Below, piece after piece: positions 44,487 to 55,850 of a stretch of DNA of 64,000 nt. The position numbers and the translations under genes are program-made. This DNA comes from Gemmatimonadota bacterium (GTDB lineage: Bacteria > Latescibacterota > UBA2968 > UBA8231): positions 56,704 to 120,703 of the forward strand of contig JAYPJE010000003.1 of assembly GCA_038128265.1 (NCBI GenBank). The letters are read 5' to 3'. The notes under the pieces are model-generated. The model saw only the letters and a program-made list of their open reading frames with translations. It was not told the DNA's origin and made no database searches. Position 1 is the stretch's first letter; each line of letters starts with the position of its first letter.

Positions 44487-44551
44487 ACTCTTCTTATGCC
44501 CGCACTCATGGCCGCGGGCACTCATTGAATACCGTTGCACGACAAGACTAC

Positions 44552-45481
44552 ATGGCAAACGCACTCCAGGGCCGTCGCCGCCTGCCCCCCTGGCTGAAGG
44601 CCAAGGCACCAGGCACACCCAACTATATAGACATTAAGAACTTGGTAGCGGAGAAGCGCCTGCACACCGTATGTGAAAGCGCTCACTGTCCCAACATCGG
44701 CGAGTGCTGGGGCCAGCGCACGGCCACCTTTATGATTCTCGGCGACGTTTGCACGCGCAGCTGCGGCTTTTGCGCCATTAAAACGGGCCGACCGGAATGG
44801 CTCGACGAGGGCGAACCCGAACGCGTCGCCGAAGCCGTGGCGCACCTCGACCTGCGCCACGCCGTCATCACCTCCGTCAATCGCGATGAATTGCCCGACG
44901 GCGGTGCACGCGTTTTTGCCCGCACGCTCGAAGCGCTGCATAGCCGCTGTCCGCAGACTACGGTAGAAGTTCTGATACCCGATTTTCAGGGGAATTGGGA
45001 CGCGTTAGAAACCGTTCTGAGCGCCGGTCCGGACATCCTTAACCACAATATAGAAACGGTGCCTCGGCTCTACTTTAAGATGCGGCCACAGGCCAAATAC
45101 GCGCGCTCGCTGGAACTACTCAGCCGGGCGCGCACGGCTGGACCGGCCCCGACCAAATCGGGCATGATGCTGGGAGCCGGGGAGCGCGAAGACGAAATAG
45201 CCCAAACCATCGACGATTTGGCCGCCGTCGGCTGCGCCATTTTGACGCTCGGTCAGTATCTGAGCCCGTCCGCACAGCACGTGCCCGTCGAGCGCTACGT
45301 CGAGCCCGACGAATTTGACCACTGGTACCATTACGCCATGCAGCGCGCATTCCGCCACGTGGAATCCGGGCCGCTCGTGCGCTCGTCTTACCACGCCGAA
45401 GCACAGGTAGATGAAGCGACGCGGCGCACCGAGACACGCGATCTGCTATCTGTAGCCCCCTTACCCATCGAGAAAGAGTAA
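44552..45481 (+). CDS. lipA: Lipoyl synthase
   Basis: Cysteine clusters CPNIGECW and CTRSCGFC (radical SAM). I prefer the ATG at 44552 over the TTG at 44525 from the ORF track. Confidence 0.93.
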   Translation: MANALQGRRRLPPWLKAKAPGTPNYIDIKNLVAEKRLHTVCESAHCPNIGECWGQRTATFMILGDVCTRSCGFCAIKTGRPEWLDEGEPERVAEAVAHLDLRHAVITSVNRDELPDGGARVFARTLEALHSRCPQTTVEVLIPDFQGNWDALETVLSAGPDILNHNIETVPRLYFKMRPQAKYARSLELLSRARTAGPAPTKSGMMLGAGEREDEIAQTIDDLAAVGCAILTLGQYLSPSAQHVPVERYVEPDEFDHWYHYAMQRAFRHVESGPLVRSSYHAEAQVDEATRRTETRDLLSVAPLPIEKE

Positions 45482-45489
45482 AGGCGCGA

Positions 45490-46494
45490 ATGAATCTGGA
45501 AAAGAAATCCCTGTCCGGCTACCTGCAACGCAAAAAGCTCATTACGCGCGGCACGCCTATCCGCGTGCAGACGTTGGGCGACGGCATGAAGAATCGCGTC
45601 TATTACGTCGCCGCTCCAAAGGAAGCCTGGATCGTCAAGCAGGCCCATTCACGCGTGCAGATAAAGGAGCGCTGGTGGCTCGACCGCAAGCGCATTTTTG
45701 CCGAGGATAGCTGCATTGATATTCTTCGCCAGTTTATGCCGCCGGAAATCATTCCGCAAACCGTCTTAGTCGATCGCACGGACTTCGTGTTGGTGACCAC
45801 TCCGCCGCCCGACAACGCCGTGCTGTGGGAAGACGACCTGGCCAGCGGTCGGATTGATCTGCAGATTGCCGTCCAGTGCGGCGAACTGCTGGCCACGGTG
45901 CACAACGAAACGGCTGAACACCCCGAGCTCAAGGCGATGTTCAAAGACACCAAGGCCTTCGAACAGCTGCGCATAGAGCCTCACTACGAATACGTCACCA
46001 ACACCTTTCCCGACCTTAAGAAGGTGATTGATGCGCAGACCAAGCGCCTCAAAAAGGAAACGTACTGCCTCATACTGGGCGATCTGCGACCGCGCAACGT
46101 GTGGGTCAACTCCGGCCAGCTCTACCTAGTCGACTTCGCCACCGCACACTTTGGCCACCCCGGCTTCGACCTGGCGTTCTACGCGGCCGATATGTGCGTC
46201 AAAGCCATGCAGAACAGCCTGCAGAAAGCCGCTTACTTAGAAGCAATCAACGTGTTCTGGAACGGCTATTTCAAATTGGCTTCTTACAAGGGCGTGAAGG
46301 AAATCGAAAAGCCCGCCGTACGCGACCTGGGCTGCATGCTGCTGGCAGCGACTGACGGCCGCCAGGCGGTCGAATTCGACGATCCCCACGTCGCCGGCCT
46401 TGCGCGCCGCATTGCCATGAGCCTGCTGTTCACCGAGTTGGCCACGATCGAGGACATCACCGAGTTTATCAACCGAACGCTAATCGACGGGTAG
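45490..46494 (+). CDS. APH-fold phosphotransferase, methylthioribose-kinase-like
   Basis: 334 aa. Motifs LGDGMKNRVYYV...VKQA, the catalytic-loop equivalent LILGDLRPRNVWV, and LVDFATAHFG. Confidence 0.65.
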   Translation: MNLEKKSLSGYLQRKKLITRGTPIRVQTLGDGMKNRVYYVAAPKEAWIVKQAHSRVQIKERWWLDRKRIFAEDSCIDILRQFMPPEIIPQTVLVDRTDFVLVTTPPPDNAVLWEDDLASGRIDLQIAVQCGELLATVHNETAEHPELKAMFKDTKAFEQLRIEPHYEYVTNTFPDLKKVIDAQTKRLKKETYCLILGDLRPRNVWVNSGQLYLVDFATAHFGHPGFDLAFYAADMCVKAMQNSLQKAAYLEAINVFWNGYFKLASYKGVKEIEKPAVRDLGCMLLAATDGRQAVEFDDPHVAGLARRIAMSLLFTELATIEDITEFINRTLIDG

Positions 46495-46592: not shown

Positions 46593-47348
46593 CTATGCGC
46601 CGGCAGCGGTAAACTGCGCGCGCAGATCCTCACTGCTCGACAGCACGTGCTCTACCATTGCGGTACGCGCCGCCTGCGCATCGCCGGCGCGCAGTGCACG
46701 AACGATATCCTCATGCTGCTGCAGCGACAGCCGCGCGCGATCGAGCGCGCGGTCCTCCTCCGCCAGCGAACGCTCAATCCACGCCTGCAAATAGCCGCGC
46801 GTCGCTTCGAGCAAGCTGGCCAGCAGCGCATTTTGCGTGGCCCCTGCTACCGCCAGATGAAAGCGCACGTCCGCGGCCAAAAACTGCGCTCCATCCTCCA
46901 GGGCTTCGGCCATATCCGACAGAGCCTCCTCTATCCGGCGCATATCCTCTTCTGCGGCCCGCTGTGCCGCCCAAAATGCCGTCTCCGACTCCAACATCAG
47001 GCGCGTCTCAATCAGATCGCCGACCATCTTGCGGTTAAGCAGCATACCCCACTGCAGCGCCTTTTGCACGAACTGCTGGTTGTCGCTGACAAAAGTCCCC
47101 TCGCCGACGCGGCCATCGATCACGCCCATGGCGCTCAGCGAGCGCAGCGCCTCGCGCAGCGACGAACGCCCCACGCCAAATCGCTTACACAATTCGCGTT
47201 CAGGCGGCAGGCGATCGCCCGGGCGCAGCACGTCGCGCTTGATCAGATCGACGATCTGCGCCATAATCTCTTCGCCCAGCGACGTGCGCGCTATCGGGCG
47301 GACATTAGCGGCCACTGAATTGGAAGAATCGGCGTTATTCAAATTCAC
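46593..47348 (-). CDS. GntR-family transcriptional regulator (FadR subfamily, FCD ligand domain)
   Basis: 251 aa. wHTH RLPPERELCKRFGVGRSSLREALRSLSAMGVIDGRVGEGTFV plus an all-helical C-terminal domain. Confidence 0.9.
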   Translation of the reverse strand: MNLNNADSSNSVAANVRPIARTSLGEEIMAQIVDLIKRDVLRPGDRLPPERELCKRFGVGRSSLREALRSLSAMGVIDGRVGEGTFVSDNQQFVQKALQWGMLLNRKMVGDLIETRLMLESETAFWAAQRAAEEDMRRIEEALSDMAEALEDGAQFLAADVRFHLAVAGATQNALLASLLEATRGYLQAWIERSLAEEDRALDRARLSLQQHEDIVRALRAGDAQAARTAMVEHVLSSSEDLRAQFTAAGA

Positions 47349-47418: not shown

Positions 47419-47447
47419 TTGCAATTGGTCTGACCATCAGCTATTTT
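47419..47447 (+). promoter_or_regulatory. Candidate promoter of the corrinoid operon (TTGCAA-N17-TATTTT)
   Basis: Hexamers at 47419-47424 and 47442-47447. The spacer contains the palindrome listed next. Confidence 0.3.
47426..47436. promoter_or_regulatory. GntR/FadR-type operator palindrome TGGTCTGACCA
   Basis: Perfect palindrome TGGTC-T-GACCA matching the (T)GGT-N-ACC(A) core typical of FadR-subfamily operators. It sits between the divergent GntR gene and the operon. Confidence 0.5.
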
Positions 47448-47492: not shown

Positions 47493-48131
47493 ATGGCTCT
47501 AACCCGCGATATCGGCACTCGCATCGAGCTGGTGCCCATGGATTTGCACTGCAGCAATATAACCGTTGCCCTCTACCGCCAGGATGGGGCCGAAGCACCG
47601 GCTTACCGCGTCCATACCTACAGCCAGCACCCCGATGCTCCCCAGCGCATCGAAGCGCTGCGCCAGGCGATGCAGATACTGGGCACCATGGAAGAGGCCA
47701 GCGAAGAGCTGCTGCGCTTCCCCTGTGGGCACGCCCATCAATTTGCCGTGCGCCGGCTCTTTTTGGATGCCTGCAAGCGCGATCCGTCGCTGACGCTACA
47801 GGCGCAGCCCCTGCGCATATTCGACAAGAAGGGCGACGGCCACATTGCCGTAGATAGCCTAGGCGACGGCCAGTACCGCGTGCGCGCAGAAGAAGATAGC
47901 GACGGCGTCGAGCGTCGCACGGCCACCATTGCACGCGGACTGATTCGCCTCGGCGAAATGGAAGAGACCGGCGACGACGCCAATTGCCTACACTTTGCCT
48001 GCGGCCATGCGCACGATGCCCTCATTGCCCAACTGCTGGTGCGCGCACCCAACGTGCGCGCGGCCATGCGCGAAGCCGAAGAGATGGCCCAGCGCGGTCA
48101 GCTCGTCGCCCCCAGCGCCCAGAATAATTAG
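47493..48131 (+). CDS. Hypothetical protein with an internal duplication and two CGHAH motifs
   Basis: 212 aa and the first gene of the operon. The halves align: YRV(38-40)...LGTMEE...RFPCGHAH(78-82) against YRV(128-130)...LGEMEE...HFACGHAH(170-174). No family recognised. Confidence 0.6.
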   Translation: MALTRDIGTRIELVPMDLHCSNITVALYRQDGAEAPAYRVHTYSQHPDAPQRIEALRQAMQILGTMEEASEELLRFPCGHAHQFAVRRLFLDACKRDPSLTLQAQPLRIFDKKGDGHIAVDSLGDGQYRVRAEEDSDGVERRTATIARGLIRLGEMEETGDDANCLHFACGHAHDALIAQLLVRAPNVRAAMREAEEMAQRGQLVAPSAQNN

Positions 48132-48139
48132 GAGATAGC

Positions 48140-49177
48140 ATGGCACACGTTCCCTCTATGACCAGCAAAGAGCGCGTACTCGCCGCTCTCAATCGCCAGC
48201 CCGTCGACCGCACGCCGCTGTGCAATCCGACTTCGGTAGCTACCGTCGAGCTAATGGACCTCGTCGATGCCCCTTTCCCCGAAGCCAATCGCCAACCCGA
48301 GCTCATGGCGCGCCTAGCTGCCACCGGCTACACCGAACTCGGCTTTGACACCATCATGCCCGTGTTCTCCATCATTCAGGAATCTTCCGCGCTGGGCTGT
48401 AAGATCCAGTGGGAGCAAAAGGACAACTGGCCGACGGTGCGGATGAACGAACCGATTTGGCAAACGCCCGATGATATTAACGTCCCAACCGATTTGTGCA
48501 CCCATCCCGATACCCGATGCGTCACCGACGCCATTGCCATATTGCGCAAAGAATACGGGGATGAGGTGGCCGTCATCGGCAAGACCATGGGGCCCTGGTC
48601 ACTGGGCTACCACTGCTTTGGCGTCGAACCCTTTTTGCTGATGTCGCTCGACGATCCGGGCAAGACCAAGCTCTGCTTGGATCGCATGAAGGAGATAACG
48701 GTCGAATACGGTCTGGCGCAGATCGAGGCCGGCGCCGATGCGCTGACGCTGCCCGACCATGCCACCGGCGATCTGGTCAGCGGCGAATACTACGAGCGCT
48801 ATTTACGCGACCTACACATTGAGATGGCCGAGCGCCTCCCTGTGCCAATTATTCTCCACATCTGCGGCCGCACCGTCGATCGCATGGAGTACATCGCCCA
48901 AACCGGCATGGCGGCTTTCCACTTCGACTCGAAGAATACGCCGATGGAATCGATGGACATCGTCTCAGATCGCATTGCCTTGGTCGGCAATATCAACAAT
49001 CCCGAAACGCTCTTTTCCAAAGGGCCCGACGTCGTGCGCGAAGAAGTATACCGCAACCTGGAAGCGGGCGTGCAACTCGTCGGGCCGGAGTGCGCCATAC
49101 CGCTGCAGACTTCGATTGAAAACCTAAAGGAAATACCCCGCGCCGTGCGCGATTGGCACGCCGGCATCGACCGCTAG
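48140..49177 (+). CDS. MtaA/CmuA-type (uroporphyrinogen-decarboxylase-fold) corrinoid methyltransferase
   Basis: 345 aa. N-terminal SKERVLAALNRQPVDRTP, and the Zn-ligand pattern H-x-C...C seen as ILHICGRT and GPECAIP, as in MtaA/MtbA/MtsA. Confidence 0.85.
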   Translation: MAHVPSMTSKERVLAALNRQPVDRTPLCNPTSVATVELMDLVDAPFPEANRQPELMARLAATGYTELGFDTIMPVFSIIQESSALGCKIQWEQKDNWPTVRMNEPIWQTPDDINVPTDLCTHPDTRCVTDAIAILRKEYGDEVAVIGKTMGPWSLGYHCFGVEPFLLMSLDDPGKTKLCLDRMKEITVEYGLAQIEAGADALTLPDHATGDLVSGEYYERYLRDLHIEMAERLPVPIILHICGRTVDRMEYIAQTGMAAFHFDSKNTPMESMDIVSDRIALVGNINNPETLFSKGPDVVREEVYRNLEAGVQLVGPECAIPLQTSIENLKEIPRAVRDWHAGIDR

Positions 49178-49187
49178 GAGAGAAAGC

Positions 49188-49931
49188 ATGGCAGAAATCG
49201 GCGATATTGCCAACGAGTTTATACGCGAAGAAATCGATGAATTCCTCGAGCGCGACGACGAGCGCACGCGCAATATAGAGCACTTTGCGCGCGCAAAGCC
49301 GCTGATGCAGGACATTGCCGCCGCCCTCATCGACGGCGCGCACGAAGAGGTCGACGAACTGACGCAGCAGGCGCTGGGCGAGGGCATTGAAGCGCTCGAG
49401 GTCATGGACGATGGCCTCATTGCCGGCATGGGCATCGTCGGCATTAAATTCCGCGAAAACTTTATCTTTGTTCCCGAGGTGCTGGCTTGCGCGCGCGCCA
49501 TGAAGGCCGGCATGGCCCATATCGAACCCATTCTCTCCGATTCGGGTATCGAACCCATTGGCACGGTCGTCATGGGCACGGTTAAGGGCGATCTGCACGA
49601 TATTGGAAAAAATCTCTGCATCATGATGCTGCGCGGCGCCGGCTTTGTCGTGCACGACCTCGGCGTCGACACCTCGGAAGACGAGTTTATCTCCGCTATA
49701 GAAGAGCACGGCGCCACGCTACTGGGCATGTCCGCACTGCTGACGACTACGATGCCCAATATGGGCAAGACGATTGAAGCCTTTATCGACGAAGACCTGC
49801 GCGACGATATCAAAATCATGGTCGGCGGCGCGCCTGTCACACCGGAATTTGCCGAAGATATGGGCGCTGACGGCTACGGCAAAGACGCCCTGGCCTGCGT
49901 CGAGTTGGCCAAGCAGCTGCTAAGCGAATAA
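49188..49931 (+). CDS. Corrinoid (cobalamin-binding) protein, MtaC/MetH-B12-domain-like
   Basis: 247 aa. Helical cap domain followed by a Rossmann domain with DxHxxG (GDLHDIGKN), SxL (SALLTTT) and GG (GGAPV). Confidence 0.9.
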   Translation: MAEIGDIANEFIREEIDEFLERDDERTRNIEHFARAKPLMQDIAAALIDGAHEEVDELTQQALGEGIEALEVMDDGLIAGMGIVGIKFRENFIFVPEVLACARAMKAGMAHIEPILSDSGIEPIGTVVMGTVKGDLHDIGKNLCIMMLRGAGFVVHDLGVDTSEDEFISAIEEHGATLLGMSALLTTTMPNMGKTIEAFIDEDLRDDIKIMVGGAPVTPEFAEDMGADGYGKDALACVELAKQLLSE

Positions 49932-49955: not shown

Positions 49956-51848
49956 ATGGCTCCCATAGACCCCAGCGAATACCAAAAGCGCCTCGACAAA
50001 CTGTCTTCTCTGCTGGGCGGTATCGTCCGCCACGCCGATGTGCAGTCTCAGAGTCGCTGTCCCTACAAGAACCGCCACGGCGAGTGCACCGCCCAGTTTG
50101 GCTGCCGCAACCAGCGCAAAAACGAGCAGGCAGGTGGGCCGCTGCTGTGCGTGGGCGACGATCAATTGGACTACCGCAGCGCGTGGGAAGGCATCGAACG
50201 CCCGGCTCAGCGCCCGGCCCAAGACGGCAGGGGTCGCATAACCAGCGGTGCGCATTCCTGTGTCGCGCAGAGCCGCCGCACGCTTTTTGATGCGGCCGAT
50301 CAGCTCGACGTAGCCGTGCCCACATCGTGCTATCGCACGGGCAGCTGCCACGAGTGCATCGTCGAAGTCAAACGCGGTATGGAGGCGCTCAACGCGCGCA
50401 CGCGCGAAGAGCACTTTCTGCGCGAAGACTACCGCCTGGCCTGCCAGGCCGAAGTCGTTGATGCAGACATCGACATCGAGTTCGCCCCGCTCAACCGCAC
50501 TCCGCGCATACTAACCCTGTCTACGACTCAGCCCGATGAAGTCGCTCCCCTGGTGGAGCGACGGCAGGACAAAGTCTATTTCGACGGGGAGCATATCGAC
50601 GACTATCGCGGCCGCATATTGGGCATCGCCATCGATTTGGGAACGACCACCGTAGCCATGGAGCTACTCGACTTGGAAACGGGAGAGAGCGTGCAGGTGG
50701 CCTCGTTTGAAAACCCGCAGCGTTTTGGCGGCAGCGATGTGATGAACCGCATATCCTACGACGCACAGCACCCGCGCGAGCTACGGCAGGCCATCGTCAA
50801 GGCACTCAACCGCCAAATTGCTCGCTGGTGCGCGCTCTACTCTATCCACCGACACTGCATTTACGAAGTCGTCGTCGCCGGCAATTCAACCATGCGCGAC
50901 ATCCTCTTTCGCTACGACGTCCAAGGCATAGGCCAGAGGCCCTACAAGTCGCAGGTCGAATTGGAGTTCATCGATGGCCAACGCTCTCACACCGCCCTGA
51001 GCGAAAAGACGCGCCGCCTCGGCCTGCGCGCCCATCCCAAAGCGCGCGTCTACGGTTTACCGCTCATCGCAAGTCATGTTGGAGCGGATGCAGCCGCCGA
51101 CCTGTGTGCCACCCGACTCGACGCTGAAGCGGATGCCGCCCTGTTAATCGACGTCGGCACCAATACCGAAGTCGTGGCCATCTACAACGGGCGCATGGTC
51201 GCCGCCTCTTCTCCGGCTGGACCGGCATTCGAGGGCGGCACCGTCACCTACGGAATGCCCGGCTACGAAGGCGCCATCGAACGCCTGCGCTGGAACGGGA
51301 CGGCTTGGGACTACAAGACCATTGGCGATATCGCCCCCCAAGGCATCTGCGGCTCGGGCCTAGTCGATCTCCTCGCAGAGCTCCGACGCCACGATCTCAT
51401 GTCACCCAAGGGCGCCTTTGCCCAGCGGCAAAAGGAGATCACCGTAGTGGCCGACGCCGGCATCACGTTTTCGCGCCTCGACGCCTCCAACCTAGCGCAG
51501 GCCAAAGCCGCCAATTACTGCGGCCAATACATCGTGCTGCGCGCGCTTGGCCTCGCTCCAGCTCAGGTAAAAAAACTCTACCTGGCCGGCGGATTCGCCC
51601 ACTACATCGATGCTCAGGCGGCCATAGATATCGGCTTTTTGGCACCGGTTCCCGTAGAGCGGATAGAAAAAGTCGGCAACGCCTCGCTGCAGGGCGCGCG
51701 CGATGTGCTGCTCTCAAAAAACAAGCGCCGCCGCTTAGAAGAGTTGGTCCGTCGCATCGAACACATCGAGCTCGAAACGACGCCCGATTTTTTTGAGCTC
51801 TTCGTCGACGGCTGCCAGTTCAAACCCATGCCCTCCGAGCTGAACTGA
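49956..51848 (+). CDS. RACo/RamA-type reductive activator of corrinoid proteins (2Fe-2S ferredoxin + ASKHA ATPase) with an extra Cys-rich N-terminal extension
   Basis: 630 aa. Ferredoxin CYRTGSCHEC...LACQ begins near aa 90. ASKHA motif IAIDLGTTTV and a C-terminal DUF4445-like region. Aa 1-90 carry C-x9-C-x5-C-x16-C. Confidence 0.85.
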   Translation: MAPIDPSEYQKRLDKLSSLLGGIVRHADVQSQSRCPYKNRHGECTAQFGCRNQRKNEQAGGPLLCVGDDQLDYRSAWEGIERPAQRPAQDGRGRITSGAHSCVAQSRRTLFDAADQLDVAVPTSCYRTGSCHECIVEVKRGMEALNARTREEHFLREDYRLACQAEVVDADIDIEFAPLNRTPRILTLSTTQPDEVAPLVERRQDKVYFDGEHIDDYRGRILGIAIDLGTTTVAMELLDLETGESVQVASFENPQRFGGSDVMNRISYDAQHPRELRQAIVKALNRQIARWCALYSIHRHCIYEVVVAGNSTMRDILFRYDVQGIGQRPYKSQVELEFIDGQRSHTALSEKTRRLGLRAHPKARVYGLPLIASHVGADAAADLCATRLDAEADAALLIDVGTNTEVVAIYNGRMVAASSPAGPAFEGGTVTYGMPGYEGAIERLRWNGTAWDYKTIGDIAPQGICGSGLVDLLAELRRHDLMSPKGAFAQRQKEITVVADAGITFSRLDASNLAQAKAANYCGQYIVLRALGLAPAQVKKLYLAGGFAHYIDAQAAIDIGFLAPVPVERIEKVGNASLQGARDVLLSKNKRRRLEELVRRIEHIELETTPDFFELFVDGCQFKPMPSELN

Positions 51849-51856
51849 GCACGTCT

Positions 51857-53464
51857 ATGAGCAAATCACACCCCCCTCGGCGCTACTCGGGCGCCTGGCA
51901 GAAAGAGAGCCTGCGCAACCTGCTGCGAGACGACGCAGAATTCGTGCACGTCGTCGAGCTGGTCACCTCGCGCGGCGTAATGGCAGACAAAGACGGAAGG
52001 CGCATCCTATCGCTGGCGCGCCGCCTCTGCGAACACCCGGACGTGCACGCCCTGAGCATCACCGACAACCCCGGCGGCAACGCCATGATCAGCGCCGACA
52101 CACTCGGCACCGACCTGCTCTCGCGCGGCCAAGAAGTCATCATCCATATCTCCTGCAAGGATTGGAATCGCAACGCCCTGCAGGGGCGAGCATGGCAGCT
52201 GGCCAGCGAGGGCTTTGATAACGTGCTGTGCCTTTCCGGAGACTACCCGACCAGCGGCTACCGAGGAGTCGCCAGCGGCGTATTTGACATCGACTCCATT
52301 GGCCTGCTGCAGATGTTTAGCGAACTCAACGCCGGCCTGTCCATTGCCGGCCGCAGCAAGCCGCGACGCTTGAAAAAAACCCACTTTTTACTGGGTGCGG
52401 CGACCAACAACCACAAGCGCTACGAACGCGAGGTCATGCCGCAGTATTTCAAGCTGGCACAAAAGGTGCAAAACGGCGCCGACTTTATCATCAGTCAGAT
52501 TGGTTACGACACCCGCAAGCAGGACGAACTCCTCCGCTATATGCGACTGCGGCACATCGACGTGCCGGTCATAGCCAATGTCTTCGTGCTCAGCGCTGGG
52601 GTGGCGCGCTACTTTCACGGCGGCCACATCCCCGGCGTAGAGGTTACCGATCGCCTGCTGGAACTGTGCGAGCAACAGGCCCAGTCTCCCGACAAGGGCA
52701 AGGCGTTCTTTCTGGAATTAGCCGCTCAACAGTGCGCCATTGCGCGCGGGTTGGGCTATCGGGGCGTCTATCTGGGCGGCCATCTACAATACGGCGACTA
52801 CGAAAAAATCATCGCCCTATCGCAGCGCTACGCACCCGACGATTGGCGCGACTTTGCGCGCCAGATCGACTTTTCCCATCCCGATGAGTTCTACTTTTTT
52901 GACCGCGATCCGTCGAGTGGCCTGAGCAGCGATGCAATTAATCCCGCCTACCTGGCGTCCAAGGATCACACGGCACGCAGGCGATTGCAGCGCGAAGTAT
53001 CCAGCGCCTATAAGCTCAGCCGCATTGTACACGAACACCTCTTTGCTCCGCACAGCCGCGGCTTTCAGGCCGGAAAAAAATTGGCCGCAGCACTAGAGCA
53101 CAGCCCCAATGCCCAACGCTTTCTGCACGTCGTAGAGCAGGCGACCAAAGTTCCTCTTTTCGACTGCCGCGACTGCGGCGACTGCTCGCTGCCCGACATC
53201 GCCTATTTATGTCCCGAATCACAGTGCGTAAAAAACCAGCGTAACGGGCCGTGCGGCGGAACGCGGCAAGGACTGTGTGAAGTAGGCGATAAGGAATGCA
53301 TCTGGGCGCGCGCCTACGAACGTTTGAAAGCGTATGGGCAGGAGGAACACATGCTCGAACGCCCTGCCGTCATTAAAGACGGTGCGCTGCACGGAACCAG
53401 TGCCTGGCTCAACACCTTTGCAGGTCGCGATCACCACGGACGCGACGGGGAGAACGCACCGTGA
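51857..53464 (+). CDS. metF: Methylenetetrahydrofolate reductase fused to a Cys-rich MTHFR C-terminal (MetV-like) domain
   Basis: 535 aa. MTHFR barrel (VVELVTSRG...ITDNPGG...CLSGD) and the C-terminal motif CRDCGDCSLPDIAYLCPESQCVKNQRNGPCGG. Confidence 0.82.
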   Translation: MSKSHPPRRYSGAWQKESLRNLLRDDAEFVHVVELVTSRGVMADKDGRRILSLARRLCEHPDVHALSITDNPGGNAMISADTLGTDLLSRGQEVIIHISCKDWNRNALQGRAWQLASEGFDNVLCLSGDYPTSGYRGVASGVFDIDSIGLLQMFSELNAGLSIAGRSKPRRLKKTHFLLGAATNNHKRYEREVMPQYFKLAQKVQNGADFIISQIGYDTRKQDELLRYMRLRHIDVPVIANVFVLSAGVARYFHGGHIPGVEVTDRLLELCEQQAQSPDKGKAFFLELAAQQCAIARGLGYRGVYLGGHLQYGDYEKIIALSQRYAPDDWRDFARQIDFSHPDEFYFFDRDPSSGLSSDAINPAYLASKDHTARRRLQREVSSAYKLSRIVHEHLFAPHSRGFQAGKKLAAALEHSPNAQRFLHVVEQATKVPLFDCRDCGDCSLPDIAYLCPESQCVKNQRNGPCGGTRQGLCEVGDKECIWARAYERLKAYGQEEHMLERPAVIKDGALHGTSAWLNTFAGRDHHGRDGENAP

Positions 53465-54489
53465 ATATACCCGCTATCGACAAACCCTTTATCGTCATTG
53501 GCGAAAACGTCCACACCACCCGCGTCCTTTCGCGCAAGGGCAAGCTCATTGCCTCCGATGCCGAGGGGCGAGAGGGCATTCGCTATCGCGACACGAACAA
53601 CGCACGGCGCTTTTTACCCATCCCAGAAGACGTAAAGGGGACGCGCGACTACGAAGAGGGCCGTATCAAGCACCTCAAAATAGCCGTGCGCGAAGCGATG
53701 GCGGGCAGCGCAGATGCACTCGACTACATCGCTCGGCAGGTGCAGCGCCAAGAGCAGGCCGGCGCCGACTTTCTCGACCTCAATGTCGACGAGCTATCCA
53801 TTCGCGTCGAGGAACAGCAAGAGGCCATGCGCTGGCTGGTCGGCGCCGTGCATTCCATGAGCACGCTCCCCCTCTCAATAGACTCGTCCAATAGCGAAAT
53901 ACTGCGCGCCGGCTTGGAGTGCTGTGCAGATCACGCGGAGCGGCCGCTGCTCAACTCGGCATCACTCGAGCGTTTAGACGGCCTCGATATGGCGCGCGCA
54001 TTCAATGCGCAGGTCGTCATCACAGCCTCAGGTGAATCCGGCATGCCCGATGACGTCGAAGAGCGTATGACGCATGCCATGCGCATGGTCGAAGAGGCCG
54101 ACCGACGCTCCATACCGCTATCCGACCTATTTATCGACCCACTGATCTTTCCCATCTCTGTCGATGGCCGCTATGGCCAGCACGCTTTTGGCGCCATAGC
54201 CCAGCTGCGCGCGCGACTGGGCAACGACGTGCACATAACTGGCGGCTTTTCCAACGTGTCCTTCGGCCTGCCATGCCGACAGCTCATCAACGACGTCTTC
54301 CTGATACTCGCCGTCGAAGCCGGTGCCGACAGCGCCATTATCGATCCGACGAGCAGCTCCCTGAGCGAGGTCTTTTCCATCGACCGCAGTGCGTCAACTT
54401 TCCAGCTGGCCGAAGACGTGCTGCTGGGCAGAGACGAGTACTGCGCCCGTTTTATCCGCGCCTATCGCAAGGGGGAACTGACGGCCTAA
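53461..54489 (+). CDS. Pterin-binding methyltetrahydrofolate:corrinoid methyltransferase (AcsE/MtrH/MetH pterin-domain-like)
   Basis: 342 aa. Motifs IVIGENVHTT, ...FLDLNVDE... and ...PLSIDSS.... The GTG start overlaps the metF stop (GTGA). Confidence 0.85.
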   Translation: MNIPAIDKPFIVIGENVHTTRVLSRKGKLIASDAEGREGIRYRDTNNARRFLPIPEDVKGTRDYEEGRIKHLKIAVREAMAGSADALDYIARQVQRQEQAGADFLDLNVDELSIRVEEQQEAMRWLVGAVHSMSTLPLSIDSSNSEILRAGLECCADHAERPLLNSASLERLDGLDMARAFNAQVVITASGESGMPDDVEERMTHAMRMVEEADRRSIPLSDLFIDPLIFPISVDGRYGQHAFGAIAQLRARLGNDVHITGGFSNVSFGLPCRQLINDVFLILAVEAGADSAIIDPTSSSLSEVFSIDRSASTFQLAEDVLLGRDEYCARFIRAYRKGELTA

Positions 54490-54563
54490 GCGCCGCATAC
54501 GGCAGCCCCTGCAGACTCCCGCCGCGCTGGCTTTTTCCATCCCTTTGCATAGATTATTTCTCT

Positions 54564-55562
54564 ATGATACCATTTATTGAGCGCATCGCCGAAGAGCATC
54601 CCCTGCTGTACGATGGGGGGTTTGGCTCCCAGCTATTTGCCCGCGGCATCGAGTTGACCAACAGCACACTGGCCAACGAAGCACATCCCGACGCCGTCGT
54701 AGAAATCCATCGCACCTATATCGAAGCCGGCGCCGATGCCATTGGCACCAATACGTTTGTCGCCTCGGAACTGCATTTAGAAATGGCCGGCAAAGATCCG
54801 GCTTCGGCCGGTCAACTAGCCACGCGTGCAGCTCAGCTGGCGCGCCGCGCCGTCGAGGAGAGCGGCCGCGAAGTCTATGTCGGCGGATCCATTGGCCCCT
54901 CCCCCGGCGCCATCGAATCAGATGCCGGCGACACCACCTTTGGCATTGCCGACGCCAACGTCCGCGACGCCCACGCGCGCATCGTCGACGCGCTGGTCGA
55001 AGGGGGCGTCGACTTTTTTGCCATCGAAACTCAATTTTCTGCCAAAGAGGCAGCCATAGCCTGCAATATTGCCCGTAAGGCGGGGCTGCCAATCGCCATC
55101 AACCTGACGCTCAAGTACACCAAAGATCGAAAAACAGGCGTCGTCACCTACAAGACCGACTGGGGTCACTCACCGGCAGATCTGCTTGACATCCTCGCCT
55201 CCGGAGAATTTTCTGACGGAGATAATCTGCTCGACCACGTACACCTACTCGGCCTCAACTGCGGGGCCGAAACGCGCCGCAGCGAGCACACCGGTATGGC
55301 CTATGCCATCTGCGGCAGCGAGCAGATAGGGCAGGCACTGCAGGCGCGCGGTCTGTCCAAGCGCATTATGACCTATCCCAACGCCGGCATGCCGCAGCTC
55401 GATAGCGAACACCGAACTACCTATTCGCAGACGCCGCAGGACATGGCCGCGGATATCTCCGACCTAATCGACAGCGGCGCCTATTTCATCGGTGGCTGCT
55501 GCGGCACAACGCCCGATCACATCCGCGCCTTTCGCCGGGCCATCGACGGGCATGCAGCGTAG
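54564..55562 (+). CDS. Stand-alone homocysteine S-methyltransferase (MetH Hcy-binding module)
   Basis: Start set to the ATG at 54564. Motif LLYDGGFGSQL, with Zn ligands in LGLNCGAE and GGCCGTTPDHIRAF. Confidence 0.88.
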   Translation: MIPFIERIAEEHPLLYDGGFGSQLFARGIELTNSTLANEAHPDAVVEIHRTYIEAGADAIGTNTFVASELHLEMAGKDPASAGQLATRAAQLARRAVEESGREVYVGGSIGPSPGAIESDAGDTTFGIADANVRDAHARIVDALVEGGVDFFAIETQFSAKEAAIACNIARKAGLPIAINLTLKYTKDRKTGVVTYKTDWGHSPADLLDILASGEFSDGDNLLDHVHLLGLNCGAETRRSEHTGMAYAICGSEQIGQALQARGLSKRIMTYPNAGMPQLDSEHRTTYSQTPQDMAADISDLIDSGAYFIGGCCGTTPDHIRAFRRAIDGHAA

Positions 55563-55565
55563 GCC

Positions 55566-55850
55566 ATGATCCACTATCAGGTGCTCTACTGGCGCGATAT
55601 ACCGGCGCAAATAAAAGTCTACGCCGGGCGCCGTCCCACTTCACACGCCCTAGCATCGCGCTTTCAGGTAGCCATCGACCGCATCGCCATGCACGAAGGA
55701 CTGACCGGCACCGAGGCCTATCTCGACCAGTGGCAATGGTCAGACAAACGCCCGTATGAAGGCGATGCAGAAGGGGCAGCGGCCGTCTTAATTAGCCAGT
55801 TAGAGCGCGAGGGCGATGCGCAGCTAGCCGCACGCAAAGAATCGCCGTGA
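55566..55850 (+). CDS. Small protein of the family annotated 'virulence factor', which accompanies split methionine synthase genes
   Basis: 94 aa. The N-terminus MIHYQVLYWRDIPAQIKV matches my memory of that family's YWRDIPAQ signature. Assigned from memory only. Confidence 0.55.
   Translation: MIHYQVLYWRDIPAQIKVYAGRRPTSHALASRFQVAIDRIAMHEGLTGTEAYLDQWQWSDKRPYEGDAEGAAAVLISQLEREGDAQLAARKESP

Follow-up and report, generated by a model that had tools for sequence, protein, structure and literature searches.

What does the first gene of this operon contribute to corrinoid-dependent methyl transfer? The window, as we call the whole 64,000-nucleotide stretch of DNA analysed here, contains at positions 47493..48131 (+ strand) an ATG-started open reading frame, backed by codon bias, for a 212-aa uncharacterised and internally duplicated protein, X. 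An original prediction made from the sequence had placed X at the head of the operon, assigned it to no named family, and proposed that it is dedicated to the MtaA-like methyltransferase encoded behind it.

X has the properties of a real gene. Its GC content by codon position is 0.73/0.44/0.74, with 0.72-0.74 at position 3 in the five genes downstream, and between its stop codon, overlapped by an AGGAG, and the ATG that starts the MtaA-like gene there are 8 nt. Homologue searches returned 612 sequences in clade A (E ≤ 1e-3), and a clade B query found 865; hundreds of the homologues are full-length (~210 aa), and they come from several phyla. The family comprises two clades and spans at least 419 species genomes and more than 1000 protein clusters. 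All carriers sampled were metagenome-derived genomes, many from sponge metagenome projects, and we found no cultured or annotated carrier; among 72,556 plasmids tblastn gave no match to X, and the MtaA-like protein had only distant HemE-type matches there. We found nothing to favour a spurious ORF or a decaying pseudogene, and third-position bias like that of the neighbours, hundreds of homologues and a confident AF2 fold leave that reading with practically no probability. X, as predicted the operon's first gene, is real, is widespread and does not yet have a name.

The region upstream of X points to regulation. A divergent GntR/FCD-family regulator gene (46593..47348, − strand; Pfam GntR and FCD) has an orthologue in the same position in 50 related loci, and a palindrome, TGGTCTGACCA (47426..47436), a candidate GntR-type operator, lies 57 nt upstream of the X start. 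In 44 of 81 loci the 300 nt ahead of X contain the pattern TGGTC[T/A]GACCA, as against 1.5% of random 300-nt windows; in the loci listed it starts 67-83 nt before X. This conserved palindrome is probably a GntR-type operator, and would thus mark X as the first gene of a regulated operon.

The gene that follows X is almost always the same. X lies directly upstream of an MtaA-type zinc methyltransferase gene in 78 of 80 loci, with a median gap of 15 nt (≤ 60 nt in 69 of the 78), and three loci entered independently from MtaA-like homologues, one of them labelled Acidobacteriota, all have an unannotated gene of ~210 aa upstream. A corrinoid protein and a RACo activase are usually encoded downstream of this obligate pair, and a deeply diverged Chloroflexi clade has the order HcyMT - X' - MtaA-like - corrinoid protein - RACo. 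In Poribacteria, X and the MtaA-like gene occur together even where the retrieved locus has neither a gene for a corrinoid protein nor one for RACo; the two exceptions to the pairing, in which X has no adjacent MtaA-like gene, are also from Poribacteria (L054 and L056). X evolves much faster than its neighbour (median identity to the window 53% vs 84%), and its conservation is below that of every other core component. The adjacency upholds the predicted dedication of X to the MtaA-like gene, its homologues stand beside corrinoid systems in other genomes, and we conclude that X is most likely a working partner of the MtaA-type methyltransferase.

Searches for relatives of known function agreed with the assignment of X to no named family. 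X matched no Pfam or NCBIfam family at E ≤ 0.1, 20 diverse members searched against Pfam at E ≤ 10 gave only single, unrelated chance matches, and the best PDB matches by phmmer and profile hmmsearch (E = 0.15-0.4) were short chance stretches. No MerB/NosL-type chain (MerB fold, Cys-Asp-Cys site) appeared in sequence or fold searches. Natural fusions among 150 representatives were uninformative: P0202, which joins an N-terminal part of X to a URO-D fragment, was rejected as a probable read-through after a frameshift, and other long proteins had no second domain. Literature on sponge symbionts, Chloroflexi and aerobic bacteria yielded no description of X.

The two halves of X resemble each other. 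Half 1 (aa 38-93; 47604..47771, + strand) carries F-P-C78-G-H-A-H82 and half 2 (aa 128-185; 47874..48047, + strand) carries F-A-C170-G-H-A-H174-D175, both delimited by self-alignment, hhalign and conservation. Their local alignment, at an offset of ~90-92, scores 78 (BLOSUM62) against a mean of 25.7 (sd 4.7) for shuffled controls (z = 11; 0 of 2000 as high as observed), and at family level the half-profiles align by hhalign with a probability of 97.6% (E = 2.7e-12, 59 columns). By these comparisons the halves are homologous. AF2 modelled X with pLDDT 85.6 and pTM 0.82, predicting the topology (beta3-alpha-beta2-alpha) x 2 without a barrel, and a second, independent model (pLDDT 82.2) has the same duplicated topology. 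Shuffles, profiles and predicted topology therefore all agree with the duplicated, pseudo-dimeric protein originally proposed. Foldseek searches of the PDB with both models found no match (best E = 0.07-0.11, TM ≤ 0.23), which leaves likenesses to the “ribosomal protein S5 domain 2-like” duplications (LpxC, IGPD) and to PUR/Whirly repeats without support; a relationship of the halves to PF13769 proteins was likewise rejected (hhalign probability 0.1-0.2%). On the AF2 models, the family probably represents a new fold.

Conservation across the family revises the proposed metal-site residues. X has two CGHAH copies, at aa 78 and aa 170, which puts the Cys codons at nt 47724 and 48000 as originally given, and this Cys plus two His, occurring twice, had been taken to suggest one or two metal sites. 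The Cys and the second His of the motif stand, with 95-99% conservation of C78, H82, C170 and H174 in both of two deep clades, but the first His does not: in clade A only 31-38% have His at positions 80 and 172, and in clade B His is outside the three commonest residues there. The family motif is F-x-C-G-x-x-H (C-x3-H), in two copies, with CGHAH kept only in part. D17/C78/H82 and D111/C170/H174 form near-invariant, pseudo-equivalent sets, the full D-C-H-D-C-H-D pattern is present in 267 of 293 sequences, and 46 positions are invariant across homologues. Metal binding through C78, H82, C170 and H174 is plausible; each half would give one Cys and one His, and the four would most likely make one metal site, probably for zinc, between the halves. 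In three divergent members C78, H82 and C170 are all missing, and in two of these H174 as well, so a metal site would not be essential for whatever function they retain. The C-terminal tail (aa 202-212, G-x-L-x-A-P-S-x-Q; 48096..48128, + strand) is predicted to be disordered (pLDDT < 50), yet G202, L204, P207 and S208 are conserved; the tail of clade B differs and is also conserved (RGQMTTGTLGF).

In Rieske centres each of two loops gives one Cys and one His, a logic that the Cys/His arrangement of X follows. X could then be a redox or reactivation helper, with a Rieske-like [2Fe-2S] cluster or another redox metal feeding RACo or the corrinoid protein, or could have a role like that of DUF1638 (PF07796). 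Genetic evidence links DUF1638 to corrinoid methyltransferase systems that use RamA-type activases (10.1101/192971), and in Phaeobacter split MetH depends on it together with a RamA-like protein (10.1101/192971; PMC12478193); no DUF1638 gene was seen in any of the X operon listings, as would fit its replacement by X. However, DUF1638 goes with RamA, whereas X goes with the MtaA-like gene and not with RACo or the corrinoid protein, as in the Poribacteria pairs, and no sequence relationship between the two is detectable. The spacing in X is C-x3-H twice, not the C-x-H...C-x-x-H of Rieske boxes; neither DUF1638 nor Rieske had a Pfam match in 20 members at E ≤ 10, and Rieske or ferredoxin structures were absent among the Foldseek matches. 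We regard a redox or reactivation role as unlikely.

Could X itself be the enzyme that demethylates the substrate? The cluster at a Betaproteobacteria locus consists only of GntR, X, MtaA-like, corrinoid protein and RACo genes. With X as a new, non-TIM-barrel substrate:corrinoid methyltransferase (MT1) for a small methyl donor, and with the MtaA-like protein passing the methyl group from the corrinoid to a thiol, as happens in methanogens, this would make a complete three-component system. The conserved Cys/His/Asp residues might hold a catalytic zinc like that of MtaB. Yet all characterised corrinoid-dependent methyltransferases are, to our knowledge, TIM barrels, whereas X is a 212-aa alpha/beta pseudo-dimer whose AF2 topology is no such barrel and which has no Pfam match to the MtaB, MttB/MtgB, MtvB/OdmB or CdmB families. 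The Cys/His set is missing from some members, X is the least conserved core component, and in MtsA-type enzymes one MtaA-like protein carries out both half-reactions, so even the small cluster needs no second methyltransferase. We therefore find it very doubtful that X is an MT1.

Equally doubtful, in our judgement, is a role outside the working enzyme, as an assembly factor that delivers zinc to the MtaA-like protein or helps the corrinoid protein to acquire B12. The Cys/His site and the conserved flexible tail do recall metal-delivery proteins, and aerobic hosts may need protected loading. But known zinc chaperones are COG0523 GTPases, we know of no other MtaA system that needs one, and the one-to-one, first-in-operon, translationally coupled placement of X suggests a stoichiometric subunit.

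The rest of the operon indicates the process in which the working partner of the MtaA-type enzyme would take part. The MtaA/CmuA-family zinc methyltransferase of URO-D fold (48140..49177, + strand; PF01208, TIGR01463) scores 249.7 bits against TIGR01463 (cut-off 235.4) and 257 against PRK06252 (cut-off 244), and matches Methanosarcina mazei MtaA (4AY7) at E = 7.5e-50 with ~40% identity over its full length; its zinc motif, H240-I-C242 with C318 (P-E-C-A), aligns with LHICG/PGCG of 4AY7. Next come an MtgC-like corrinoid protein with a B12 cap and a B12-binding domain (D135-L-H-D-I-G; 49188..49931, + strand; PF02607 and PF02310), whose best NCBIfam match, MtgC, is below cut-off; a RACo/RamA-type reductive activase with a [2Fe-2S] ferredoxin domain (49956..51848, + strand; PF00111, PF17651 and PF14574); a methylene-THF reductase (MTHFR) with a C-terminal DUF5981 (51857..53464, + strand; PF02219 and PF12225); and a pterin-binding methyl-THF:corrinoid methyltransferase, MtgD/MeTr-like (53461..54489, + strand; PF00809, NF005719). 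These are followed by a homocysteine S-methyltransferase (HcyMT; MetH Hcy module, MtgE/Bmt-like; 54564..55562, + strand), identified through orthologues in L001 and L091 that are PF02574 proteins; its start, MIPFIERI, was placed from the extent of the tblastn match, the listed ORF (54273..) being over-extended. Separate corrinoid, pterin, PF02574 and RamA/RACo genes are found in the window and in related loci, and by gene content the window operon is of the “split MetH / MtgBCD hub” type, with X and the MtaA-like protein replacing MtgB.

The operon ends with a small PF13769 (“Virulence_fact”) protein (55566..55850, + strand; Pfam E = 9.7e-15), whose gene comes after that of the pterin-binding protein or HcyMT in L001 and L087-L091, and before HcyMT in L083-L086, which are Chloroflexi loci. 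PurU lies beside the operon in L087, which fits methyl-group oxidation. Other neighbours give mixed hints (an NMT1-type binding protein, a HAD phosphatase, Gfo/Idh/MocA, Ldh_2 and PhyH). Recurrent extra genes (LipA with an APH-type kinase, HAD phosphatase with Gfo/Idh/MocA, an ADP-ribosylglycohydrolase-like gene and a DapA-like gene) track lineage, and we therefore did not use them to name a substrate. Some loci have insertions between operon members (a helicase, an HTH/antitoxin-like gene, DUF4268 and DUF433); being of mobile or defence type, these are uninformative on the substrate.

We suggest that X is an accessory subunit of the MtaA-type enzyme in corrinoid methyl transfer, which as a whole is our best explanation and to which we give about an even chance. 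[quoted passage not shown] Judged by the intact Zn-thiolate motif of the MtaA-like enzyme, a methyl thioether is the probable donor. Once on the corrinoid protein, the methyl group could go to tetrahydrofolate by the pterin-binding methyltransferase, then to MTHFR and C1 oxidation, or to homocysteine by HcyMT, yielding methionine, while RACo would re-reduce inactivated cobalt. X most likely would supply substrate or product binding, or docking of the enzyme with the corrinoid protein, a service that MtaA itself would not need in methanogens. Against a subunit, we know of no MtaA, MtsA or MtpA enzyme that needs one, and the faster evolution of X than of its partner, the members without Cys/His ligands and the two Poribacteria exceptions also seem to argue against it.

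The reaction of MtpA, an MtaA-family enzyme that demethylates the thioether methylmercaptopropionate (MMPA), is thermodynamically unfavourable (10.1101/548461), and this leaves room for a helper protein. Such a helper might be an enzyme in its own right: a small metalloenzyme or Cys-His-Asp enzyme that frees a methyl-thio compound from a precursor, or that traps or converts the thiol product and so pulls an uphill thioether demethylation forward. The two near-invariant Asp-Cys-His sets and the tight translational coupling with the MtaA-like gene would suit this, but X is unlike any hydrolase, lyase or thiol-handling family in sequence and fold searches, conserved second-substrate genes are absent nearby, and the ligand-less members argue against an essential catalytic triad; a separate enzyme is in our estimate improbable. 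We give a low probability to the reading that X, as a metal-dependent subunit without a TIM barrel that activates the substrate, lets the MtaA-type enzyme of oxygen-exposed bacteria demethylate an abundant marine methyl-sulfur compound, candidates being methylmercaptopropionate, dimethylsulfide, methanethiol or a methylthio-sugar, or that X drives this uphill reaction by trapping the thiol or as a redox partner.

A usual corrinoid system has a substrate enzyme, a corrinoid protein and an acceptor enzyme, with an activase; as the accessory subunit that we favour, X would be a fourth component, present in 419 species genomes or more and as constant as the enzyme gene behind it. Dominant sponge symbionts are among the hosts sampled, as are Chloroflexi and Acidobacteriota from metagenomes; how these organisms turn over methyl groups and organosulfur compounds is poorly understood. 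We know of no enzyme identified as demethylating methylmercaptopropionate in aerobic bacteria, and a helper protein could explain how uphill MtpA-like chemistry becomes useful in aerobes. If the marine methyl-sulfur proposal holds, sponge symbionts, Chloroflexi and Acidobacteriota would have in this operon a so far overlooked way of assimilating methyl-sulfur compounds or methyl groups into folate and methionine, and X would be a new kind of component in B12-dependent methyl transfer. The family is also a clean target for a Pfam entry.

How does this system compare with those already known? With the Ruegeria Mtg hub and the split MetH of Phaeobacter inhibens, likewise from bacteria of oxic habitats (PMC12478193; 10.1101/192971), the window operon has in common a stand-alone MtgC-like corrinoid protein, a pterin methyltransferase, a PF02574 protein, a RamA/RACo activase that includes a ferredoxin domain, and an MTHFR of its own. 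In Ruegeria pomeroyi one MtgC serves MtgB, the bidirectional MtgD, a homocysteine methyltransferase and RamA, and MetF2 oxidises methyl-THF; this is the only organism with genetic proof that one corrinoid protein supports both methionine synthesis and substrate demethylation (PMC12478193). The window operon differs in having an MtaA-type URO-D protein with X on the substrate side, rather than the MttB-family MtgB, in lacking DUF1638, and in holding all genes in one operon with a GntR/FCD regulator.

Among the methanogen thiol/thioether methyltransferases MtaA, MtsA and MtpA (4AY7; 10.1101/548461), MtaA shares the zinc-ligand motif with the partner of X, and MtpA provides the example of substrate-side use with a methyl thioether; unlike the window system, these enzymes have no X-like subunit. 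The bacterial hosts of the window system are not expected to make coenzyme M, and the methyl sink is tetrahydrofolate or homocysteine, not coenzyme M. Type 1 mlp clusters have two or three MtaA paralogues, no THF methyltransferase and no described X-like gene, and occur only in obligate anaerobes (PMC10418091); we considered these clusters and the Cdm system as the cluster of X and rejected both as different systems. The Cmu chloromethane pathway of methylotrophs (CmuA/CmuB/MetF2/PurU) follows the same logic of THF-dependent methyl oxidation, with PurU found here in L087, and has MtaA-like and corrinoid domains, a pterin methyltransferase and an MTHFR in common with the window operon; the MtgC of roseobacters reportedly stands closest to CmuA (PMC12478193). 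CmuA is a fusion, whereas in the window its parts are separate proteins, to which a RACo activase and X have been added.

The gene for protein X runs from 47493 to 48131 on the forward strand, called as an ORF with an ATG start and a product of 212 aa. GC by codon position within it is 0.73/0.44/0.74, and position-3 GC of the five genes downstream is 0.72-0.74, so the ORF shares the coding signature of its neighbors; its stop codon, overlapped by AGGAG, lies 8 nt from the ATG of the next gene. That the ORF is spurious is excluded by this coding-type GC, by hundreds of homologs of ~210 aa, by their conservation, and by an AlphaFold2 model. We conclude that X is a genuine gene, as the original prediction had taken it to be.

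X belongs to no named family, in keeping with the original failure to assign it one. It had no match in Pfam-A or NCBIfam, 20 diverse members scanned at E <= 10 gave single chance matches only, and searches of all PDB sequences with X by phmmer and with the X family profile returned only chance stretches. X instead defines a family of its own, with two clades. The window protein (clade A) retrieved 612 clusters at E <= 1e-3, all of ~210 aa and all "hypothetical" or nameless; a query from the second clade (clade B), typified by the homolog P0211 and from Chloroflexi wherever a source name is given, retrieved 865. Homologs occur in 419 species genomes of a GTDB-based collection. The best 80 loci are all from MAGs, of Latescibacterota, Poribacteria, and "Gemmatimonadota", with single MAGs labeled Planctomycetota, Candidatus Moanabacter, Rhodospirillaceae, Betaproteobacteria, and Gammaproteobacteria; the operon is also present in an Acidobacteriota MAG. 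Many of the complete MAG chromosomes with X probably come from sponge genome projects, and no cultured carrier was found among the best 80 of the 419 genome loci, plasmids, and two further loci.

AlphaFold2 modeled X from a 32-row alignment (pLDDT 85.6, pTM 0.82) as (beta3-alpha-beta2-alpha) x 2, followed by a helix (residues 185-201) and a disordered tail (202-212), and a separate model of a Chloroflexi-clade member (pLDDT 82.2, pTM 0.76) had identical topology. Foldseek matched neither model to the PDB (best E = 0.07-0.11, TM <= 0.23), and the predicted fold may therefore be new, as judged against the PDB. Although predicted to be disordered, the tail is conserved, clade A having G-x-L-x-A-P-S-x-Q and clade B having RGQMTTGTLGF, a pairing of traits that segments folding upon binding to a partner usually show.

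The two halves of X are duplicates. The alignment of residues 38-93 with residues 128-185 scores 78 under BLOSUM62, against 25.7 ± 4.7 for shuffled second halves (z = 11; observed score reached in 0 of 2000 shuffles), bearing out the repeat originally read from the single sequence. When the 294-row family alignment was cut in two, hhalign matched the half-profiles with a probability of 97.6% (E = 2.7e-12, 59 columns); the duplication is thus a family trait, not a peculiarity of the window sequence.

The two CGHAH motifs reported in X fared less evenly. They lie at residues 78 and 170, placing the Cys codons at nt 47724 and 48000, exactly as predicted. Among 293 full-length relatives (172 from clade A, 122 from clade B), the Cys and last His of each motif are conserved: C78 and H82 each at 98% in both clades, C170 at 95% in clade A and 98% in clade B, and H174 at 95% and 99%. 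The first His, in contrast, is variable, H80 being kept in 38% and H172 in 31% of clade A, and neither being among the three commonest residues in clade B. The family unit is consequently F-x-C-G-x-x-H per half, not C-G-H-A-H. Three aspartates accompany it, D17 (99% and 100% in clades A and B), D111 (98% and 100%), and D175 (88% and 100%), while conservation of H19, H41, and C94 is limited to clade A. Of the 293 sequences, 267 have the complete D17-C78-H82-D111-C170-H174-D175 pattern; C78, H82, and C170 are jointly absent from three divergent homologs (P0143, P0251, and P0258), the first two of which also lack H174. This near all-or-none loss suggests that the Cys/His set is one functional unit, behavior typical of a shared, here putative, metal site: C78, H82, C170, and H174 would together coordinate a single metal, probably zinc, lying between the two halves.

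The neighborhood of X is as consistent as its sequence. The original suggestion that X is a dedicated partner of the MtaA-like gene, which encodes a URO-D-fold zinc methyltransferase, holds well beyond the window. When 82 fetched loci were searched by tblastn with the window operon proteins, 78 of the 80 genome loci among them had X immediately upstream of this gene (median gap 15 nt; <= 60 nt in 69 of the 78), an obligate pair followed by the corrinoid protein gene in 72 loci and by the reductive activase RACo in 67. From the MtaA-like side, an unannotated gene of ~210 aa was directly upstream in all three loci searched (one Acidobacteriota MAG and two complete contigs), and the same operon recurs around X on two additional contigs, of 5.7 and 8.1 Mb. 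Beyond this core, loci of the window type continue with MTHFR and a pterin-binding methyltransferase, with or without homocysteine S-methyltransferase (HcyMT), and the other main layout has HcyMT directly after the core. A Betaproteobacteria locus consists only of GntR, X, MtaA-like, corrinoid protein, and RACo; in several Poribacteria loci the X and MtaA-like pair is all that is retained locally; and the Chloroflexi order is PF13769 - HcyMT - X' (the Chloroflexi X) - MtaA-like - corrinoid protein - RACo, interrupted in places by genes of mobile or toxin type. The sole exceptions to adjacency among the 80 loci are two X copies in one Poribacteria MAG (L054 and L056), each of which is followed by membrane-protein genes instead.

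We consider it likely that X is a functional partner of the MtaA-like enzyme. Against a redox or reactivation helper, with a Rieske-like center or as a DUF1638 analog, X tracks the MtaA-like gene rather than RACo, its motif spacing is wrong, and no match was found. X could itself be a new methyltransferase, which would complete the minimal betaproteobacterial cluster, but its model has no TIM barrel, its ligand set is absent in some members, and of the core components X is the least conserved: compared with the window proteins, the median identity is 53% for X, 64% for RACo, 83% for the corrinoid protein, and 84% for the MtaA-like enzyme.

The last two (window 48140-49931) are 78-97% identical to their window counterparts over 80 loci (L003-L082) with several phylum labels, and X, RACo, MTHFR, and the regulator have medians of 50-66%, pointing to very strong constraint on, or recent horizontal spread of, both genes. 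Gene order is unbroken despite mobile or defense-type insertions (L035 10.4-13.0 kb, L038 10.5-14.5 kb, and between X' and URO-D in L083-L086), which encode a 1009-aa helicase-like protein, HTH/antitoxin-like proteins, DUF4268, DUF433, Uma2, and N6/N4 methylase. Between corrinoid protein and RACo, several loci also carry short genes of 72-110 aa with neither annotation nor Pfam match (L086 14247-14465; L087 10869-11108; L090 12565-12897), for which the window, with a gap of only 24 nt, has no counterpart.

In the window, X is followed by the MtaA/CmuA-family methyltransferase (48140-49177; TIGR01463, 249.7 bits against a cut-off of 235.4), the corrinoid protein with D-L-H-D-I-G (49188-49931; MtgC is its best match in NCBIfam, with a score under the cut-off), RACo carrying a 2Fe-2S domain (49956-51848), MTHFR with DUF5981 (51857-53464), the pterin-binding methyltransferase (53461-54489), and the HcyMT module (54564-55562). 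The mechanical HcyMT ORF (54273-55562) begins 97 codons too early, inside the pterin-binding gene; a start at 54564 (MIPFIERI...) agrees with homologs. The last gene (55566-55850) encodes a 94-aa PF13769 ("Virulence_fact") protein, unrelated to X by hhalign. At distant loci PF13769 genes likewise come after the pterin-binding or HcyMT gene (L001, L087-L091) or, in Chloroflexi, before HcyMT (L083-L086), and the protein looks like an unrecognized member of split-MetH-type systems.

The MtaA-like enzyme aligns with M. mazei MtaA (4AY7; E = 7.5e-50), including the zinc motif H240-x-C242 ... C318. Because this Zn-thiolate site is retained, the methyl donor would be a methyl thioether or related compound. 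The MtaA-family enzyme MtpA demethylates methylmercaptopropionate in a thermodynamically unfavorable reaction, detected only at high substrate concentration (10.1101/548461), which would give a helper a concrete job: to bind the substrate or the thiol produced from it, or to keep the enzyme in place on the corrinoid protein. X and the MtaA-like enzyme would form a complex that serves as the substrate-side methyltransferase and charges the corrinoid protein with methyl groups. That X is an accessory subunit of such an enzyme, with a metal site between its halves, we regard as about evenly balanced against other readings, and any particular substrate merits much lower confidence. Among these readings, a small enzyme with Asp-Cys-His sets, making the substrate or removing the product, finds support in those residues and in nothing else, and a metallochaperone or assembly factor is a further rival.

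A perfect palindrome, TGGTCTGACCA (47426-47436), lies between X and the divergent GntR/FCD gene. Of 81 loci, 44 have the pattern TGGTC[T/A]GACCA in the 300 nt preceding X, compared with 1.5% of randomly drawn 300-nt stretches. The pattern starts 67-83 nt upstream of X in the loci listed and was seen only alongside the divergent GntR/FCD gene in the loci inspected. It is likely a GntR-type operator, a candidate that would make X the first gene of a regulated operon and offers a handle on the inducer, and hence on the substrate.

Recurrent neighbors (NMT1-type binding protein, HAD phosphatase, Gfo/Idh/MocA, Ldh_2, PhyH, and APH-type kinase) follow lineage and so do not identify the substrate. 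In the window (44525-46494), the gene for lipoyl synthase and, after it, one for a 334-aa kinase-like protein of the APH family (PF01636) run convergently toward the GntR gene, an arrangement that recurs in about 37 loci and may be lineage synteny only. Methylthioribose kinase belongs to the APH family, and the kinase might for this reason be linked to the operon substrate. A Cof-type HAD phosphatase with one to three Gfo/Idh/MocA oxidoreductases lies 1-4 kb upstream of X in L042, L048, L051, L090, and other loci, in at least three different layouts, and ADP-ribosylglycohydrolase-like and DapA-like genes follow HcyMT in one Latescibacterota lineage; these neighbors may hint at a sugar-like substrate.

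The operon has the composition of a methyl-transfer hub. In Ruegeria pomeroyi and Phaeobacter inhibens, stand-alone modules make up a split MetH (PMC12478193; 10.1101/192971), which in Ruegeria doubles as a glycine-betaine demethylase: MtgB methylates the single corrinoid protein, MtgC, which trades methyl groups with THF by way of the bidirectional enzyme MtgD and passes them to homocysteine by way of MtgE; RamA reactivates MtgC, and MetF2 oxidizes methyl-THF (PMC12478193). The window operon has the same modules, except that an MtaA-type enzyme and X stand in the place of MtgB. In one Acidobacteriota MAG (L087 4562-7379), a fused HcyMT-MTHFR gene and a PurU-type formyl-THF deformylase adjoin the operon, which fits methyl oxidation by the folate route. 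X lies outside every family tested for membership, and no published description of it was found in the literature searched. In its mode of action the system resembles the Mtg/split-MetH hub as well as the Cmu and MtsA/MtpA systems, and it is distinct from both the mlp clusters known from anaerobes and the chloromethane system Cdm. X is an uncharacterized component, possibly with a new fold, inside an otherwise familiar type of system.
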